A stretch of 64,000 nucleotides of DNA from a virus, in IMG/VR virus record IMGVR_UViG_3300031576_000026, positions 16,292 through 80,291 of that record. One strand, 5' to 3'. Below are positions 32,988-40,112 of this stretch, piece by piece (position 1 is the stretch's first letter; every line of letters starts with the position of its first letter). The translations under genes were made by a program, and so were the position numbers. The notes under the pieces were generated by a model. That model saw only the letters and a program-made list of their open reading frames with translations. It was not told the DNA's origin and made no database searches.

Positions 32988-33410
32988 TTTTTTATCGAAC
33001 TTTTTAATAAGGCCCTCTTCCCCATTAAATACTAATTCATCCTGTCTAGTATCCTCAAAATGAACCTGTTTACCACAAGCCTTTGCTCTAGTTAATATAT
33101 CTCTGTTTCTAGCATTATTCCTAGAATAGATTTCTCTTCTTTGTTGTTTTGTTTTATGTATTTTTTTGCCAGGATGATTAAAATTAGCATGGGTATACTC
33201 TTCGGTAAACCGTGCTAGCCAATCTTTTTCTTCATCAGTCAACTTATCTAAATAATCATAATCTAATTCTTCATATCTAGTTTTCAGATTATAATGTGGT
33301 TTTAAAGCAGAGAATTTATCCTGATTCCTTCTATTAATTTTTGCTCTATGTTTTTTCTTATTATTCTTTACTTTCTTGTTTTTTCTGGTAATTTTTACTG
33401 CCTTTTTCAT
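32982..33410 (-). CDS. Hypothetical basic protein
   Basis: 142 aa ORF, last gene of the - arm. Confidence 0.6.
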   Translation of the reverse strand: MKKAVKITRKNKKVKNNKKKHRAKINRRNQDKFSALKPHYNLKTRYEELDYDYLDKLTDEEKDWLARFTEEYTHANFNHPGKKIHKTKQQRREIYSRNNARNRDILTRAKACGKQVHFEDTRQDELVFNGEEGLIKKFDKKL

Positions 33411-34098
33411 AGCGTGCTTCTCTTAGTTGTTGAATCTCAGTTGTTGTTATATGTTGTGTGATATTCTTAGACACTCTAAAAAACATTACACGACTAACCG
33501 ATTTTCGTTTGTAATCAAAATATAGTTTACAGAAATTAAAAAATTGTATTTCTCCTAATGGATTGTTCTTTCGTATCTTATAAGACCACATATCGTAGAT
33601 ATAATATAATCCATATGAAGGAATCCAATAATTTCCACTAGTTATATTATAATATTTCAAAAAATTCTCAAAATGTTGCTTATATCTAGGGGATTTAGTC
33701 TTATCCATAGAAGATTGCTGAATTAGTTTTAATGCCTCCTCTTTTAGCTTAAAAGCCTTTATATTGAGTCGGTAGTATTGGACTGGACCCTTCTGGTGGA
33801 CTAGGAGGTACTGGCTCAACTCACGCGAAAATTGACGACTTAGGAGGGGATTAGGGGACCATTTGGAGTATAGATTATAGACCAATCGTCTAGTTATTAG
33901 ATTTTTGCCTGGTTTAATGTTATAAATAGAAAGAAAGGGAATAATATCGTTATTAGTTAATGCATAAGCTTGTAATGCATCAGGGGCAGTTTGTAGAAGT
34001 TCTATTAATTGTTCATTAGATAGGCTATTTGGTAGTGATTTCTTTAACGGCATAGATGGCGAATCCAGTTGCAATAATACCCAATGTAAACCAACCAA
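33361..34098 (-). CDS. Putative DNA-binding protein with two related domains (winged-helix-like)
   Basis: Repeated FLxxYNIxxG...YxxWS...PL...QF pattern; real start probably MPLKKS. Confidence 0.4.
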   Translation of the reverse strand: MVGLHWVLLQLDSPSMPLKKSLPNSLSNEQLIELLQTAPDALQAYALTNNDIIPFLSIYNIKPGKNLITRRLVYNLYSKWSPNPLLSRQFSRELSQYLLVHQKGPVQYYRLNIKAFKLKEEALKLIQQSSMDKTKSPRYKQHFENFLKYYNITSGNYWIPSYGLYYIYDMWSYKIRKNNPLGEIQFFNFCKLYFDYKRKSVSRVMFFRVSKNITQHITTTEIQQLREARYEKGSKNYQKKQESKE

Positions 34099-34426
34099 CT
34101 CGTTCCCAATTGGTCATTGTGCGTTCATCGTAAAGTGATTTAGCGAGTTTTTCGTTTTGTCCAATTAATAAATTAACCTTATTATCCTGAGAATTTATAA
34201 TATTCTCTTGTAATTTGAGGCTATTCTGAAAAGAATCATTAAGTAATTTATATCCATCTCTTTCTTGGGCTAATACTTTAATATTATTGGCATGTTGTTG
34301 TGTAATAACAAACCCATCTATTGGAGATGGATCATTCTTTTTAATAGGTACTACTTCATCAGCCAGTACCCAATTATTAGATATTGAACTAGTTAAGAAT
34401 AGTATTAAGATCTTCCGCAGTAGCAT
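34025..34426 (-). CDS. Signal peptide + coiled coil + C-terminal TM (spanin-like/lysis-associated)
   Basis: Hydrophobic N- and C-termini; cluster of membrane genes. Confidence 0.4.
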   Translation of the reverse strand: MLLRKILILFLTSSISNNWVLADEVVPIKKNDPSPIDGFVITQQHANNIKVLAQERDGYKLLNDSFQNSLKLQENIINSQDNKVNLLIGQNEKLAKSLYDERTMTNWERVGWFTLGIIATGFAIYAVKEITTK

Positions 34427-34640
34427 CTTTGCCTTTCTTTTTCATCTCTTCCTCTATTTGTTTTCTCTTAGCTTCTTCTGCTTGAAGTAGTCCACTATCT
34501 CTTGCAATCGCTTTATCTTGTTCGTTAAGTTTTTTATTGGTCTCATTATTTTCCAATAAAGCTTCGGCTGAACGTCTCTTAACAAAATTATATCCAAGAA
34601 GTCCTAACAAAATACCAATAACACTTAATATTAATTCCAT
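34389..34640 (-). CDS. N-terminal TM + coiled coil (i-spanin-like)
   Basis: MELILSVIGILLGLLGY then charged helix. Confidence 0.4.
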   Translation of the reverse strand: MELILSVIGILLGLLGYNFVKRRSAEALLENNETNKKLNEQDKAIARDSGLLQAEEAKRKQIEEEMKKKGKDATAEDLNTILN

Positions 34641-34825
34641 AAATTTGTTCCAAATAAATAAATCAAACCAGTTGCCACGATTAGACTAAACAAACTAAAA
34701 AGAATACCAGAGACAACCATACCTAAAAACAAAGCAACTCCGAACTTAAATGATTGCACAAAATTCATATTAACATTGACCAATTCTCGTTCTTCTGGTA
34801 ATGTTACTGCATTTCTCATACTCAT
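34631..34825 (-). CDS. Small membrane protein
   Basis: Long hydrophobic C-terminal half. Confidence 0.55.
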   Translation of the reverse strand: MSMRNAVTLPEERELVNVNMNFVQSFKFGVALFLGMVVSGILFSLFSLIVATGLIYLFGTNLWN

Positions 34826-35121
34826 TCATTCTCCTTTTTAGGTTCACTTAATGAATCTTTATTAGATTCCTTGAGTGTATCTGTGTTAATTAAACTTCCC
34901 ATAGTTTTTGATTTCTTATTAGTAGTGAATTTTCTACCCCAATATAAACTAGCCGAGAGACCAAAGTATTCAACCGCTAGGCTTGTATCTTTTGTTAGAC
35001 CACCCAAATATAAACCTCCGGCAATGAGCAGAAATAATACCGACAATACAAAATTGGTTAAACTAACACTGGCTTCTCTACTTTTCGGATCAACTACCCA
35101 TGGTAAATTAAGTCTTGGCAT
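34822..35121 (-). CDS. Two-TM holin-like protein
   Basis: Two hydrophobic segments, charged C-terminal tail. Confidence 0.5.
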   Translation of the reverse strand: MPRLNLPWVVDPKSREASVSLTNFVLSVLFLLIAGGLYLGGLTKDTSLAVEYFGLSASLYWGRKFTTNKKSKTMGSLINTDTLKESNKDSLSEPKKENE

Positions 35122-35123
35122 AT

Positions 35124-35501
35124 CTAAATACCTCTTTTCTTTCTTTTCTTCCTATAAAATTTTCTCATACTATTTTCCAATTCTGTTTTATTCGAATGAC
35201 ATTGCTGACATAAAATCTGCAGCCCACTAACATCAACAAACAATCTTTTAATATATTCATCCCAATTTGTAAAATAGCCAGACATTGGAATCACTGCTTC
35301 AATATGATCAACATGAACTTGATTAGCTTTAAATTTTCCTTTACATGTAGAACATTGATAAATTCCACGTTCTATTCTACTTTTCCTCAATGCTTCGGTT
35401 CTAGCTGGCCACTGAAGTGATATTCTTCTTAATTTAATTCTAAGCCAAGATTCTATTTTAGGAAGTTTAAACTCCTTCTTTATTTTTCCATCTTTTTCCA
35501 T
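35124..35501 (-). CDS. HNH endonuclease
   Basis: CxxC...VHVDHI...LQILCxxCHxxKT. Confidence 0.85.
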   Translation of the reverse strand: MEKDGKIKKEFKLPKIESWLRIKLRRISLQWPARTEALRKSRIERGIYQCSTCKGKFKANQVHVDHIEAVIPMSGYFTNWDEYIKRLFVDVSGLQILCQQCHSNKTELENSMRKFYRKKRKKRGI

Positions 35502-35815
35502 GTTCCGTCAAGTTGTAGTATTTTAACCTTTGTTCTATTATTGCAAACATTGCATTCTCTAAATCTTCTGTTTAAGATGAGCTTTAATTCTAGAACTCCA
35601 CGTTCACACTCAAAGCAAACCTTTTCAGGTTCTTTTTTTACTTTTGGATCTTTTATTTCATCAATAGGTTCTGAATCTAGATAATGCCTATATCCTTTAG
35701 TAATTCTCTTTAACCTTTTATGTAGATGCCTATTCTCCGATTTAAGTCTTCTTACTTGCTCTTCCAAACGTTCTTGATCATTGGCTTTACGCTCAAAATG
35801 AGTTCTTCTTGGCAT
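35480..35815 (-). CDS. Coiled-coil plus zinc-ribbon protein
   Basis: CFEC...CNVC. Confidence 0.6.
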   Translation of the reverse strand: MPRRTHFERKANDQERLEEQVRRLKSENRHLHKRLKRITKGYRHYLDSEPIDEIKDPKVKKEPEKVCFECERGVLELKLILNRRFRECNVCNNRTKVKILQLDGTWKKMEK

Positions 35816-35819
35816 TTAT

Positions 35820-36167
35820 TCATACTTCTCGATTAATAGATCTATCTTCACTAAACCCATCCGGATATCTTTTGCGAAGTTTTTCTACATTAGCTTTCTT
35901 AATGTCATCCTCCTCAAATCCAAACATTTCGGAAAGAACTTCAAGATACCAGTAGCAATCTCCCATTTCACCCATCAATTGTTCTTTCATTTTATCATTA
36001 ACATCATGGCCGTGAAACATAATTTTTTTAATCACGTTTGCCAGTTCCCCTGCTTCGCCTGTTAATCCTAGAGTTGCGTTTACTACTATTTCGTCTGGGT
36101 TTAGTTTTTGATTTAGAGTTCTTAGAACTTCGTCTCGGTAATTCATCATGTCCTTTCCATAGGTCAT
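35820..36167 (-). CDS. mazG: MazG-like nucleotide pyrophosphohydrolase
   Basis: LGLTGEAGEL..IKK...EMGDCYWY...NVEKLRKRYPDGFS. Confidence 0.9.
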   Translation of the reverse strand: MTYGKDMMNYRDEVLRTLNQKLNPDEIVVNATLGLTGEAGELANVIKKIMFHGHDVNDKMKEQLMGEMGDCYWYLEVLSEMFGFEEDDIKKANVEKLRKRYPDGFSEDRSINREV

Positions 36168-36459
36168 CTTTCCCTATATTATTTTTTTCAAACTCCAGTA
36201 AAAAAAGCAAATTACATGCCGCATGCGCTAAGTGTGTTAAACCAGATTCCTTATCTATTCTGGTCATCCCACTAGAATTATATTTATAGAGGTGCCTAAA
36301 TGTTGCATCTAAAATGCGACTCCAATCAAATCCTTCTCTCCAATTTTGCGCTGTATATTTACTTTCACCGTAGGTTAGAACTTCGGCTACTAATAATAAT
36401 GCATCAGAAGGTAGAAGAGAACATCTGGGTTTTCCCTTATCAAACTTTACCCCACCCAT
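36028..36459 (-). CDS. dATP/dGTP diphosphohydrolase-like protein (DUF5664 type)
   Basis: KFDKGKPR.SLLP...VLTYG..KY...NW..G...RH...DKESGLTHLAHAACNLLFL. Confidence 0.85.
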   Translation of the reverse strand: MGGVKFDKGKPRCSLLPSDALLLVAEVLTYGESKYTAQNWREGFDWSRILDATFRHLYKYNSSGMTRIDKESGLTHLAHAACNLLFLLEFEKNNIGKDDLWKGHDELPRRSSKNSKSKTKPRRNSSKRNSRINRRSRGTGKRD

Positions 36460-36472
36460 ATTTCACACGATA

Positions 36473-36721
36473 TTAAGCTGCTGTTGGTTCTGCACTTTCT
36501 TCACTAACCGAAACTACTTCAGATTCTGTGTTTTCTTCTTTTACCGGAACGTCTGGGGTGGTTTGTGCATTAAGAGCCCTAACAGCAGAAAACTTCTGTA
36601 ACAGTGGATAAACTTCTTTAGCTGGCCTATTCCCAAGATATGCTAAAATCTCATTCAATAAACCTTCCTCCATTACAAATTGTTGGCTTGGTTTTGTTTC
36701 TTGTGTATTAGTTGTTGACAT
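36473..36721 (-). CDS. Hypothetical protein
   Basis: AGGAG RBS; ILAYLGNRPAKEV motif. Confidence 0.65.
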   Translation of the reverse strand: MSTTNTQETKPSQQFVMEEGLLNEILAYLGNRPAKEVYPLLQKFSAVRALNAQTTPDVPVKEENTESEVVSVSEESAEPTAA

Positions 36722-36936
36722 TTTTTACTCCTATTTTAAGTTTAAGGTTGAAGCAGAAACATATGTACTATTATTCAAACTATTAAATAATCCTGATGTA
36801 GAAAGATTTGTAGTACTATCGGTAGTATATGTTGCGTATACTGGTTGCTGACTACCCAGTGAGTTAATGGAAATAGATTTGGGCTTATTATACTCTTTTG
36901 AAGGAGAGGAAACTCGCTCCTCGTTAACTCTCCCTC

Positions 36937-37137
36937 TTAAAAAGGACGAACTGCAACTTCTACTTGATCTAGTCGATTTAGAAAATTCTCTGGGATTTCT
37001 CTTCCAGCGATTAACATAGCCGTCTTCTCATCGTTTGTTAAAATTGTCTTTGGACCCACTAAAATTTTAGCAGATTCACTTTGTTTCTTTACATCGGTTT
37101 TTGGATTAAAAAAAACAACATATTCATATAGTCTCAT
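36937..37137 (-). CDS. Small protein ending VRPF; candidate -1 frameshift extension to 36731
   Basis: AAGGA RBS before MRLYEY; ends CGT CCT TTT TAA; -1 frame open 69 codons. Confidence 0.7.
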   Translation of the reverse strand: MRLYEYVVFFNPKTDVKKQSESAKILVGPKTILTNDEKTAMLIAGREIPENFLNRLDQVEVAVRPF

Positions 37138-37191
37138 TATTTTCCTTTCCAACTATCCGGAATTTCCAGATAGTTCCAATTTATAGACATA

Positions 37192-37220
37192 ATTATATCA
37201 AACTTGATAAATTTTGTCAA
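37192..37220 (-). promoter_or_regulatory. Consensus sigma70 promoter
   Basis: TTGACA-17 bp-TATAAT with TG extension; leader hairpin AACTATCTGGA/TCCGGATAGTT at 37151-37175. Confidence 0.85.
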
Positions 37221-37969
37221 TCTATTTTATAAAGTTTTCCAGAAACAACACAAGTTCCATTAACGATAGGAACGGGTTGAAGATAAACACAGCCCGTTTT
37301 AGAATCTAGAAATCCAATTCCAAAACCAAGACTCCAGTCTCGTAAAGCTTTGATTCTGTGCATATAATCAATTTCATTAATATCACCAAGCCAACCGAAG
37401 CTTGCTCCAACGTGTGTATCACCATGGGCACTTCCTTGGACTACATAAGATGTTCGGTGTATATGTCCTATGACAATATTCTTTTGGAATGTATCTAATG
37501 CTTTATAAACAGCATATTGACCAGCATTGCCAGTGTCATGAGTTATATAAAGTTTACCCAATTTATAATGTTTCTTGTAAGGTACATATTTAAAGCCAAA
37601 TTTCTCAAGTTCTAGAATTTTTTCAGTTGATATGAAATTAAACAACTCTGGAGCATGATCCTGTAAGTATCGTTCCAATCTATCGCAATGATTACCTGAG
37701 ATAAAGACTTTATTCTTAGCTCCAAGATCACTTAATTGCTTCAATAGCTTCTTGGCCTCTTCAACTTCATAATCCAACTTTAACGCTCTGTTTGGATCTT
37801 TGCTATGGGAACTAACTGAGAAATTATCAATAAAATCTCCCATGATTATGACATGATCTGGCTTAAAATCCTTCATGACTTTTAGCATTAAATTAAATGC
37901 TTTTTTATCATGATATGGTATGTGTGCATCAGAGACAAAAAGAATTTTTTCTAGTTTATGATTTTTCAT
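37217..37969 (-). CDS. Calcineurin-like metallophosphoesterase
   Basis: SDAH, GDFID, GNH, GHIHR motifs. Confidence 0.9.
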   Translation of the reverse strand: MKNHKLEKILFVSDAHIPYHDKKAFNLMLKVMKDFKPDHVIIMGDFIDNFSVSSHSKDPNRALKLDYEVEEAKKLLKQLSDLGAKNKVFISGNHCDRLERYLQDHAPELFNFISTEKILELEKFGFKYVPYKKHYKLGKLYITHDTGNAGQYAVYKALDTFQKNIVIGHIHRTSYVVQGSAHGDTHVGASFGWLGDINEIDYMHRIKALRDWSLGFGIGFLDSKTGCVYLQPVPIVNGTCVVSGKLYKID

Positions 37970-38423
37970 AATTAATACCTGCTACTTTGTAGATGATTTG
38001 TTTTTCCTTGTTTTTATTTTTCCTGGTAATACCAGAAAGAGAACAATTTATGGAATTTGTAACCCATTCCATATTATCTAAAGTATATCCTTCTTTAGGA
38101 TTAATTCTATTAATAGATGGAGTTAATTTAATATCATAGTTATTTATAACCCAGTGCTTATATAATCTAAGAAAATCCTCATTTGTTTTAGACCATGTAT
38201 AAAAATCTTCTTTTTTTAATAAAGATTTACCCTTATATAGATGTGGGCTCCTGGTTGCTTTACCTTTGGTTCTTCTTTTCATGCCTCTATAACATATCAT
38301 TATAAACCCATTTATTGTTTTTTTATATATTTTTCGTCTGATATACTCACAATCAGAACAATAATTTGCAAGATTTACAACACAAGGATGCATCCGATGT
38401 TTACAATTTATACATTCTTTCAT
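37956..38423 (-). CDS. HNH-type (homing) endonuclease-like protein
   Basis: MKRR...FYTWS...PSINRINPKEGYTLDNMEWVT..IN. Confidence 0.65.
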   Translation of the reverse strand: MKECINCKHRMHPCVVNLANYCSDCEYIRRKIYKKTINGFIMICYRGMKRRTKGKATRSPHLYKGKSLLKKEDFYTWSKTNEDFLRLYKHWVINNYDIKLTPSINRINPKEGYTLDNMEWVTNSINCSLSGITRKNKNKEKQIIYKVAGINYEKS

Positions 38424-38749
38424 TTAAATAAATTTCTATGTTTTAAAATATAATAAAATCCTGCCTCGCTAGACAAAATTTGTCTTTCTGTTAATCCCAT
38501 TGAATATTCATTAGAAAAAGCATGCATACATTCATGTAGAAATGTTGTAACTGTTTCTTTATCAGACATATCTAATCTCAATAATATTTGTCTATTTTGA
38601 AAATCGGTTTCTCCAAATCTATCATTAGGATAAAACTCTCTAACCCAAACAACTTTATAGAAAACACTAGAAGCTATTTGTACTCGTGATGGAATCTTAT
38701 TTCTTAATTTCCTCCAGTTCACTTTCACTAATATTCCCTCTATTTTCAA
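38420..38749 (-). CDS. HExxH metallopeptidase-like protein
   Basis: FGET...TFLHECMHA. Confidence 0.7.
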   Translation of the reverse strand: MKIEGILVKVNWRKLRNKIPSRVQIASSVFYKVVWVREFYPNDRFGETDFQNRQILLRLDMSDKETVTTFLHECMHAFSNEYSMGLTERQILSSEAGFYYILKHRNLFK

Positions 38750-38960
38750 TAATTCTTTTGTATTTTTCTAAATGAATTTCTAGTATTGATTGATTATTAA
38801 TTATGCATTTATAAACGTCTTTTACCGGCACATACTTAAAATAACCAATCAACGCTTTTTTATTGGCATTGAATACATCTAAAATCTTTTCTAGATCTCT
38901 AACAATTATTTTAGCTTTCTTATAATTTTTTAGGTCAAAAATCATCATCATCCACATCAA
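38697..38960 (-). CDS. Hypothetical protein
   Basis: ORF in operon. Confidence 0.5.
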   Translation of the reverse strand: MMWMMMIFDLKNYKKAKIIVRDLEKILDVFNANKKALIGYFKYVPVKDVYKCIINNQSILEIHLEKYKRIIENRGNISESELEEIKK

Positions 38961-39933
38961 ATCCTTGTTTAATACCTAATTGTTGCTTTTTTGTTTGAAA
39001 TTCCTTTTTGAAATATGATATTTCTTTCATAATACTATCTATTGCTTCTTGTGGAGTTATTTCATAAATTGCAGATCTAATTACAATCTCATGTAGATGG
39101 GCTGCTGTCAATTCACTATATTTTTTTTGCTTAATAATCTGTAAAGTTTCGTCTGGTATTTCTCCTTTACTGAAAAATTTAAAAAGTTCGTATCTGGCAT
39201 TGGAATCCGGATAGTCCATTTTTATCTTATCATCAAATCTTCCCGGTCTATTGGTTATATTAGCCAAAAGATTTTCTGGGAAATTAGTAGTTGCTATGAT
39301 GAATATTGGAATTTGGAATATTTTTTCTTTATTGTCTAATAAAGATAAAAGACTGCTCGTACTTTTTATTTTAGCATTTTCAGCTTCAACACCACCTATG
39401 TCTTCAGCCACTAAGATAATTTTTTTAACTCCTTCCACATATTGAAAGCTCTTAAAGAAGTCTTTAACTTCAGACGGATCAATTTTATCAGTTGACCATA
39501 AAATAATAGCAGTTTTATTGTCTTTTGAATATTGTTGACAAACTTTAATTAAAGCTGTGGTTTTCCCCGTACCTGCGCTACCCCATAATAATACAGCCCG
39601 CCTTGGAATTTCTATCCCTAATCTCTTATAAACATGAAGATTACGGAAAAAGCAATCTATTTTTTTAGTTAATTCTGTTACATTTACGAAATTTTCTAAA
39701 ATAGAATCTGTAACAAACGAAGTAGATTCTAATTTTAAACCCTTTAACGTTTTTTGGATTGACCATACTCCAGGTTTAACCTGATATGGTTCTGGTTTAT
39801 ATTCCTCTTCGTGATAAATAAATTGAACAAAATCTCCTTCTGGTGTGACTGTACAAAAATCGCTTTCTTCAATCTTTTCATTTTCCTTTATGTCTAGTAA
39901 TTTTTGTTTTCTGAGTAAAGTGAAATAACCCAT
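38935..39933 (-). CDS. AAA+ ATPase
   Basis: GSAGTGKT Walker A, LVAEDI Walker B, IATTN, RPGRFD. Confidence 0.92.
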   Translation of the reverse strand: MGYFTLLRKQKLLDIKENEKIEESDFCTVTPEGDFVQFIYHEEEYKPEPYQVKPGVWSIQKTLKGLKLESTSFVTDSILENFVNVTELTKKIDCFFRNLHVYKRLGIEIPRRAVLLWGSAGTGKTTALIKVCQQYSKDNKTAIILWSTDKIDPSEVKDFFKSFQYVEGVKKIILVAEDIGGVEAENAKIKSTSSLLSLLDNKEKIFQIPIFIIATTNFPENLLANITNRPGRFDDKIKMDYPDSNARYELFKFFSKGEIPDETLQIIKQKKYSELTAAHLHEIVIRSAIYEITPQEAIDSIMKEISYFKKEFQTKKQQLGIKQGFDVDDDDF

Positions 39934-39935
39934 TA

Positions 39936-40112
39936 TTATTCTCTTCGATATTCTAGATATAGGTTAGCATCAATCACAACTTCTTCTCCGGTATCTTCTG
40001 ATGTAAACTTAATCCATATACATTCTTTATCATGGTATAATACCAACATTCCTCCCCAACCAAATCCTGGCCATTGGCCATATAGATCATAATATCGTTT
40101 CTGGACTTCCAT
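39936..40112 (-). CDS. 58-aa hypothetical protein not in ORF track (MEVQKRYYDLYGQWPGFGWGG...)
   Basis: TAATG coupling to RNA ligase; exactly fills the gap. Confidence 0.6.
   Translation of the reverse strand: MEVQKRYYDLYGQWPGFGWGGMLVLYHDKECIWIKFTSEDTGEEVVIDANLYLEYRRE

Follow-up and report, generated by a model that had tools for sequence, protein, structure and literature searches.

To our knowledge, and in the literature searched, the conserved programmed frameshifts known from tailed phages mostly concern virion genes, those encoding tail chaperones, capsid proteins and tail proteins. The λ G/GT frameshift takes place on the heptamer G_GGA_AAG. In phage T7 (10A/10B) and Lactobacillus phage A2 (5A/5B), a -1 shift in the last codons extends a minority of the molecules, and in A2 the shift is stimulated by a stem-loop. 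The frameshift of the λ G/GT tail assembly chaperone is referred to as conserved in tailed phages (Levin 1993 and Xu 2004, as cited in PMC5009743), and that of the major head protein of phage A2 is attributed to Garcia 2004 (as cited in PMC5009743 and PMC10885494). In Escherichia coli, the replication-associated gene dnaX gives rise to the tau and gamma isoforms by -1 slippage on the heptamer A_AAA_AAG, assisted by a 3′ stem-loop and by a Shine-Dalgarno stimulator located 10 nt upstream; a C-terminal partner-binding region distinguishes the two isoforms, so that the recoding sets the subunit stoichiometry. A slippery motif is defined as a Z_ZZN tetramer or an X_XXZ_ZZN heptamer (PMC4066793), and according to Sharma et al., H_HH.U_UU.Y belongs to the most efficient heptamers in E. 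coli, U_UU.C and U_UU.U being the second and third best tetramers (PMC4066793). The frameshift site of West Nile virus NS1′ is C_CCU_UUU with a stimulatory downstream structure (PMC11797035).

The window, that is, the whole stretch of 64,000 nucleotides analysed here, belongs to an IMG/VR viral record of 80 kb with an estimated completeness of 92% and a GC content of about 33%. Sequencing runs of a cave metagenome contain its DNA. The structural genes of the window occupy the plus strand at 1-33 kb. The minus-strand arm (33-64 kb) encodes ribonucleotide reductase, primase-helicase, DNA polymerase, RNA ligase, HNH proteins, metallophosphoesterase and a MazG-like pyrophosphohydrolase. The candidate frameshift gene sits in this replication arm, and its features are as follows.

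37192 to 37220, minus strand: sigma-70-type promoter, TTGACA-17-TATAAT with TG before the -10 hexamer, 12/12 matches
36940 to 37137, minus strand: zero-frame coding sequence of the predicted 66-aa short isoform (N-domain), with ATG at 37137 and the ending CGT CCT TTT TAA
36940 to 36946, minus strand: putative slip site T_CCT_TTT, by family comparison a degenerate form of the family consensus C_CCT_TTY
36937 to 36939, minus strand: zero-frame stop TAA immediately 3′ of the slip site; a stop is found here in 52/53 relatives
36900 to 36936, minus strand: putative 3′ stimulatory stem-loop with a 9-bp stem, beginning 3 nt past the heptamer
36734 to 36940, minus strand: -1 frame extension of 69 codons, Ser/Thr/Asn-rich and predicted to be disordered, with the stop TAG at 36733-36731
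36743 to 36769, minus strand: conserved C-terminal tail motif STYVSASTL, which aligns across about 50 tails

An earlier note on this DNA had claimed that the gene follows a perfect TTGACA-17-TATAAT promoter and ends with CGT CCT TTT TAA. Both statements are correct: the promoter at 37220-37192 matches at 12 of 12 positions and is the sole perfect match within 33000-40000, a ribosome-binding site and the ATG at 37137 follow downstream of it, and the gene end was found on the minus strand as described. The -1 frame begins at the last T of TTT (36940) and remains open for 69 codons, with no in-frame ATG or GTG and a single TTG, at codon 55; its stop TAG (36733-36731) is part of the sequence TAGGAG, the ribosome-binding site of the gene that follows with its ATG at 36721. 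The translated peptide is identical to that quoted in the earlier note, which had described this frame in the same terms. The N-domain and the -1 tail together make up a predicted trans-frame product of 135 aa with the predicted junction ...AVRPF-LRGRVNE, for which the Glu-C junction peptide is VAVRPFLRGRVNE. The probability of 69 open codons arising by chance is 0.002 when calculated from base composition and 0.04 when estimated empirically from the antisense frames of the arm. The open frame by itself is only suggestive, and it is the comparative data that are decisive.

The zero frame past the stop is also open in the window (36778-36936, 53 codons) and in one relative, L001 (3202-3339, 46 codons). 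This opening is absent in distant relatives (median 12 codons) and is probably due to chance or a by-product of composition.

A profile (HMM) search over 1.8 billion representatives, with clusters at 50% identity, assigned 731 clusters to the gene family at E ≤ 1e-3 and 209 at E ≤ 1e-10, the median length of the matching proteins being 69 aa. Among the best 150 of the 731 clusters, 122 end in RPF and 129 in PF. Comparison with Pfam and PHROGs revealed no match for the N-domain, the tail of the window or long tails, with the exception of a collagen repeat in a megaphage tail. The blastn search of the locus against GenBank phages gave no match, and the sole tblastn matches of three family members in the same phages were the uncultured 735-kb phage records LR756501 and LR756503. 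The signal has probably been overlooked so far because GenBank phages hold a member of the family only in this uncultured phage. A word-based protein homology search returned 3 proteins only and a metagenome scan 2 loci only; matches in Hymenobacter genome contigs turned out to be spurious antisense fragments.

Viral contigs were also scanned with a DNA pattern for I-P-x10-E-[VI]-x-x-R-P-F, in which all third positions and the next codon were left free. The family HMM filter kept 72 of the 80 pattern loci, L001, L006 and L008 were added, and clustering below 80% identity resulted in 53 non-redundant loci with a GC content of 28-68%. The negative control consisted of 41 matches of an out-of-register DNA pattern. 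The endings and -1 frames of five relatives are given below.

L001, 85% protein identity to the window: ending CGT TCT TTT TAA, -1 frame of 59 codons
L002, 42% protein identity to the window: ending CGC CCT TTT TAG, -1 frame of 84 codons
L004, 35% protein identity to the window, GC-rich: ending CGC CCT TTC TAG, -1 frame of 93 codons
L006, megaphage LR756501: ending CGC CCT TTT TAA, -1 frame of 188 open codons
L008, metagenome: ending CGC CCT TTT TAA, -1 frame of 152 open codons

The sole member found in a cultured organism is located in the isolate genome of Spirosoma sordidisoli TY50 (L194:3799-4326).

The end of the gene is conserved, also at synonymous sites. A stop codon stands directly after the final Phe codon in 52 of the 53 loci (TAG in 27, TAA in 16 and TGA in 9). 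The Pro codon is CCT in 50/53 loci, compared with 32/168 (19%) of the other Pro codons in the same genes (p = 6e-24), and the Arg codon is CGC in 43/53 loci (81%), compared with 28/70 (40%) of the other CGN codons (p = 7e-6). The 41 out-of-register control matches contain no adjacent stops, 4 CCT and 5 CGC. Since these positions are synonymous, the constraints on CGC and CCT act on the RNA and not on the protein. The resulting heptamer C_CCT_TTY was found in 43 of the 53 relatives, and T_CCT_TTY in 4 further relatives besides the window itself. A stretch of 40 or more open codons is found in the -1 frame of 49 of 51 loci, compared with 8 loci for the +1 frame and 4 for the zero frame past the stop. 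The relatives thus combine an open, selected -1 frame with synonymous constraint at the slip site. The conserved CCN TTT T ending and the open -1 frame, both of which the earlier note had proposed to look for in homologues, are therefore present. Readthrough of the stop codon was considered and rejected, as the zero frame past the stop soon closes (median of 12 codons among relatives), and it is the -1 frame that encodes the conserved tail.

It seems very probable from these comparisons that the gene is decoded in two ways by a -1 frameshift, giving products of 66 aa and 135 aa, and this is the best explanation of the data as a whole. The same two products had been predicted in the earlier note, and the slip site, the stem and the open -1 frame of the relatives support them. 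Most ribosomes would stop at TAA and release the 66-aa folded domain, and a fraction would slip back by one base on U_CCU_UUU. On the consensus C_CCU_UUY, tRNA-Pro, paired with CCU, would shift to CCC, and tRNA-Phe would shift from UUY to UUU. In the window, the new pairing of tRNA-Phe would be perfect, and that of tRNA-Pro, on UCC, would include a G-U pair at codon position 1. The stem-loop a few bases downstream would pause the ribosome over the slip site, as in the general -1 mechanism, and the shifted ribosomes would read UUA AGA GGG onward into the 69-residue disordered Ser/Thr/Asn-rich tail. The slip site of the window contains the tetramer U_UU.U with near-cognate P-site re-pairing and thus agrees with the bacterial -1 slippery motif. 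Because its heptamer is imperfect, with U and not C at position 1, the efficiency of the frameshift in the window may be low. Among the family loci, no conserved GGAGG was found at positions -24 to -15, where an upstream Shine-Dalgarno-like stimulator was looked for.

The codon choice at Glu codon 60 of the N-domain (36958-36960 in the window) is also biased: GAG is used in 36/51 loci (71%), compared with 45% elsewhere in the same genes (p = 8e-4). This codon precedes the stop by 7 codons and the heptamer by 12-14 nt, and no clear Shine-Dalgarno sequence is seen there.

The preference for C at heptamer position 1 points to tandem slippage of tRNA-Pro and tRNA-Phe. The earlier note had explained the shift by re-pairing of tRNA-Phe on the U run; the frameshift itself is supported, but the family-wide signal is the tandem-slippage heptamer C_CCU_UUY and not tRNA-Phe alone. 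A related explanation, in which tRNA-Phe alone slips, sitting on U_UUY in the P site while slow termination at a stop in the A site leaves it time to do so, seems unlikely, yet it draws on several observations. T_TTY with the following stop is the most invariant element (52/53 loci), the perfect heptamer is missing in the window, in L001 and in about eight others, and the relatives ending in CCC TTT TGA (described below) look prfB-type, so that the stop can take part in recoding within the family. The bias in the third base of the Arg codon, C in 81% against the 40% expected (p = 7e-6), speaks against slippage of tRNA-Phe alone, because this base matters only if the P-site tRNA-Pro re-pairs; moreover, stems that start 2-7 nt past the heptamer fit UUY in the A site better than a stop there. 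For tandem slippage the near-universal stop after the heptamer is superfluous. It may provide a second chance for a stop-dependent slip, or the short isoform may have to end at Phe.

The CCT TTC ending, with a T run of only three, occurs in 18 of the 53 relatives without any change in architecture. The earlier note had held that the use of TTC by homologues would refute the frameshift. TTC does occur, yet C_CCU_UUC is a valid heptamer and the -1 frame is open, so TTC in relatives does not count against slippage. The same relatives bear on transcriptional slippage, in which RNA polymerase would add a U on the T run and thus produce transcripts for the fused protein. The T5 run of the window would lend itself to this, and a single extra U would bring translation into the -1 frame. 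For productive transcriptional slippage, however, a run has to be about 8 or longer, the 18 relatives retain the same architecture with only three T, and both the conserved 3′ stem and the constraint on C at heptamer position 1 are typical of a ribosomal signal. This makes transcriptional slippage very improbable.

Even less probability can be given to an artefact or gene decay, that is, to a continuous 135-aa frame that a homopolymer assembly error or a recent mutation has interrupted, or to a -1 frame that is open by chance over a non-coding spacer. Homopolymer runs are error-prone, and 69 open codons occur empirically in about 4% of cases in such AT-rich DNA; but the same break, at the same codon, is found in more than 50 independently assembled and highly divergent genomes, and the tail motif is conserved at the protein level. 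The T5 run is also found in independent contigs of a cave metagenome that may be the source sample, and the TTC variants have only T3. A single-T assembly error, which the earlier note had named as a possible refutation, is thereby excluded.

The downstream stem is formed in the window by GAGGGAGAG (36936-36928) and CTCTCCTTC (36908-36900), with 9 pairs including one G-U. No U-tract follows the stem at 36900-36936, and a terminator scan finds nothing at this place, which bears out the earlier assertion of a 9-bp stem that is not an intrinsic terminator. The 66-nt fold has an energy of -19.2 kcal/mol (z = -2.67 compared with shuffles), and the 45 nt past the stop are the stablest of all sampled 45-nt segments within 1.5 kb (percentile 0.00). 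In the family, the 45 nt past the stop were compared with the local background, defined as 45-nt segments within 1.5 kb of each locus. The median percentile was 0.14, and 42% of the loci fell in the lowest decile (KS p = 6e-11). The stability of control segments taken 60 nt upstream or downstream in the family loci was not unusual. Compared with dinucleotide shuffles, the mean z of the 50 nt past the stop is -0.87, which indicates only mild structure. From locus to locus the predicted stems are unrelated in sequence, and most of them begin 2-7 nt past the heptamer. The stem thus recurs at the same place in homologues, as the earlier note had proposed to check, and the downstream element is a structure conserved without sequence conservation. 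Both the window and the family carry a stimulatory structure of the kind expected for a bacterial -1 frameshift signal.

The window and L001 share the stem apart from one exchanged pair (G-C to A-U), which is weak evidence alone given the protein conservation there. All 8 loci that appear to slip -1 on an imperfect heptamer, the window included, are at or below the 7th percentile of stability, and the percentiles of the 3 loci that do not use the -1 slip are 0.35-0.73. It is likely that a strong hairpin compensates for an imperfect heptamer.

Across the relatives, Ser, Ala, Thr, Gly and Asn are frequent in the tails. Their dN/dS values are mostly 0.3-0.6 (range 0.26-0.80) and below 1 in every pair, compared with mostly 0.05-0.2 for the N-domain; the value for the tails of the window and L001 is 0.33. 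The tails therefore evolve faster than the N-domain. The Ser/Thr/Asn-rich composition given in the earlier note is correct, and it needs to be refined insofar as the tail is not merely of low complexity and has a conserved short motif at its end. This motif, approximately (T/S)-Y-x-(S/N)-A-(A/S)-x-(L/V/I), lies 0-12 residues from the C-terminus in nearly all tails. Its Ala is almost invariant in about 50 aligned tails, and the motif is neutral, not acidic. The tails end in ...YVSASTLNL in the window, ...YASANSLNL in L001, ...IYTSAANLM in L002 and ...VYNAAAVLR in L004. AlphaFold2 applied to the tail alignment predicted no regular structure except a helical turn in the motif, where the confidence peaks.

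The domain and the tail are also found joined in other ways. Five database proteins (P0039, P0056, P0139, P0142 and P0144) are in-frame fusions of the domain and a tail with the motif, and domain and tail are likewise in one frame in L068. L066 and L057 have the ending CCC TTT TGA and a tail with the motif in the +1 frame (L066:7060-7180 and L057:215-385, both on the plus strand). L153, on the minus strand, has the ending CCC TTT TGC TAG and a long Thr/Gly-rich tail in the +1 frame with no recognisable motif. These +1 endings suggest a prfB-like forward slip of tRNA-Phe at the stop. In the prfB (RF2) gene, the +1 shifty stop is CUU UGA, which L066 and L057 resemble in sequence, as tRNA-Phe could slip forward on U_UUU with UGA in the A site; for the window, where a -1 shift is needed, this type of slip is not relevant. 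Since the same tail would be joined to the N-domain by -1 recoding, +1 recoding or fusion, it is difficult to see the N-domain and the tail as anything but parts of one polypeptide.

These fusions are difficult to reconcile with a separate downstream gene, which would use its own non-canonical start or termination-reinitiation and give a product unjoined to the 66-aa protein. The two frames are adjacent, and in the 9 of 53 loci with a TGA stop the first -1 codon after Phe TTT is TTG, a possible start. With TAA and TAG stops, however, the first -1 codon becomes TTA or CTA. No start is conserved, as the first in-frame ATG, GTG or TTG of the tails is located anywhere from codon 1 to codon 58 or is absent, and the window has only the TTG at codon 55. 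A separate gene is also at odds with the five natural proteins that fuse domain and tail in frame, and it leaves the synonymous constraint on CGC-CCT without explanation. The probability of such a gene is very low. Assembly error, independent start, readthrough and transcriptional slippage are each effectively excluded.

Some of the long tails deviate from the common type. In the 188-codon tail of the megaphage (L006:1692-2255), Pfam PF01391, the collagen triple-helix repeat, is matched with E = 8e-9; with this repeat, the long isoform of the megaphage would be trimeric or fibrous. In L194 and L061, the -1 frame of 176 codons contains a motif-like TTIYAKARM near its start, followed by about 150 residues that are not of low complexity and have no family match; this frame either runs into the next gene or has an extra domain added.

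The AlphaFold2 model of the N-domain has a beta-beta-alpha-alpha-beta topology with a mean pLDDT of 91.4. Foldseek searches of the PDB and BFVD and a wide VIA-align search with this model gave only weak generic alpha/beta matches, none of them above noise. The candidates within the noise, namely PurS (the best one, Z 6.5), a ribosomal protein, PaaB and phi29 p6 (TM 0.52), were rejected. The search of the ESM Atlas with the N-domain resulted in viral clusters without names only. The fold searches of the N-domain listed no OB-fold protein, an absence that does not exclude one. A complex prediction for the N-domain and the tail scored 0.21 compared with a mark of 0.32, which is evidence neither way.

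In the relatives, the two nearest genes on each side encode mainly DNA polymerase, helicase, primase, clamp loader and exonuclease; recombination neighbours include UvsX-, Sak4-, Bet-, RecT- and gp2.5-like proteins. No constant partner gene was found beside the family in the relatives. These neighbours confirm that the context is outside the tail-chaperone and capsid recoding, as the earlier note had pointed out. Judging by the neighbourhood and the architecture, the folded domain might tentatively be assigned an accessory role in the replication or recombination of phage DNA. The tail would act as a flexible tether, with the terminal motif recruiting a partner, and the proportion of subunits with and without a tail would be set by the frameshift efficiency, as is the case in other recoding systems with two isoforms. 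It is possible, but rather doubtful, that the family is a widespread, hitherto unrecognised replication or recombination accessory factor whose activity depends on an isoform ratio set by recoding, and in which the tail motif is a new short linear motif docking onto a conserved component of the replisome or of the host. If this is true, the same two-isoform design has been reached by -1 slippage, by +1 stop-dependent slippage and by fusion, which would constitute a natural series for the evolution of recoding signals. The SSB hub shares with the family only a three-part layout of a folded domain, a variable disordered linker and a terminal motif. The DNA-binding domain of SSB has an OB fold, from which the predicted fold of the N-domain seems to differ; the SSB tip is acidic and ends in Pro-Phe, and the tail motif described here is neutral.

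Among the known systems, λ G/GT is similar in that a small phage gene yields, by a -1 slip close to its 3′ end, a short and a C-terminally extended protein in a fixed ratio, and in that the signal is conserved across very divergent phages while the protein sequence is poorly conserved. Unlike the T domain of λ, which is folded, the added part here is a disordered tail with a terminal motif. The λ genes lie between the major tail and tape-measure genes, and the family described here lies in replication and recombination modules, away from the tail-chaperone position; searches of Pfam and PHROGs gave no match of the gene to a tail-chaperone family. With E. coli dnaX, the family shares the association with replication and the production of two isoforms, for which the ribosome slips by -1 on a heptamer followed by a stem-loop. 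The shifted product is shorter in dnaX and longer here, the upstream stimulator of dnaX is not conserved here, and no relation in sequence or fold exists between the two; the locus is thus not of the dnaX type. The T7 and A2 proteins are capsid proteins of the structural module, with other heptamers and with extensions that decorate the virion, and have in common with the family a C-terminal extension added by a -1 shift in the last codons. The heptamer of West Nile virus NS1′ is identical to the family consensus, a likeness of mechanism only: this is a eukaryotic RNA virus with a pseudoknot, and its site is inside a polyprotein without an adjacent stop.

No prior description of the family or of its frameshift was found in the searched literature. 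The mechanism itself is textbook; the gene family and the non-structural context are new. The context of phage recoding is extended to a non-structural family of the replication module, in phages with a GC content of 28-68% that include a 735-kb megaphage. As gene callers give a hypothetical protein of 66-70 aa and an 'empty' gap, hundreds of genomes are mis-annotated at this place. The signal is clean and short, comprising a heptamer, an adjacent stop and a hairpin, and its natural variants make up a comparative series for the mechanism, from perfect and imperfect heptamers with compensating hairpin strength to +1 versions and in-frame fusions. The conserved motif at the tail end provides a handle for finding the binding partner, and hence the function, of a large phage protein family.

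Another place in the same arm of the window deserves mention. At 36028-36167 on the minus strand, an ORF of 143 aa (36459-36028) and a MazG-domain ORF of 115 aa (36167-35820) overlap by 140 nt, the latter being in the +1 frame relative to the former. The 143-aa ORF has a dATP/dGTP diphosphohydrolase N-terminal domain, its last ~40 residues resemble out-of-frame basic junk, and PHROG 801 covers fused two-domain proteins. Possible readings are two separate genes, a genuine overlap or a second site of recoding.
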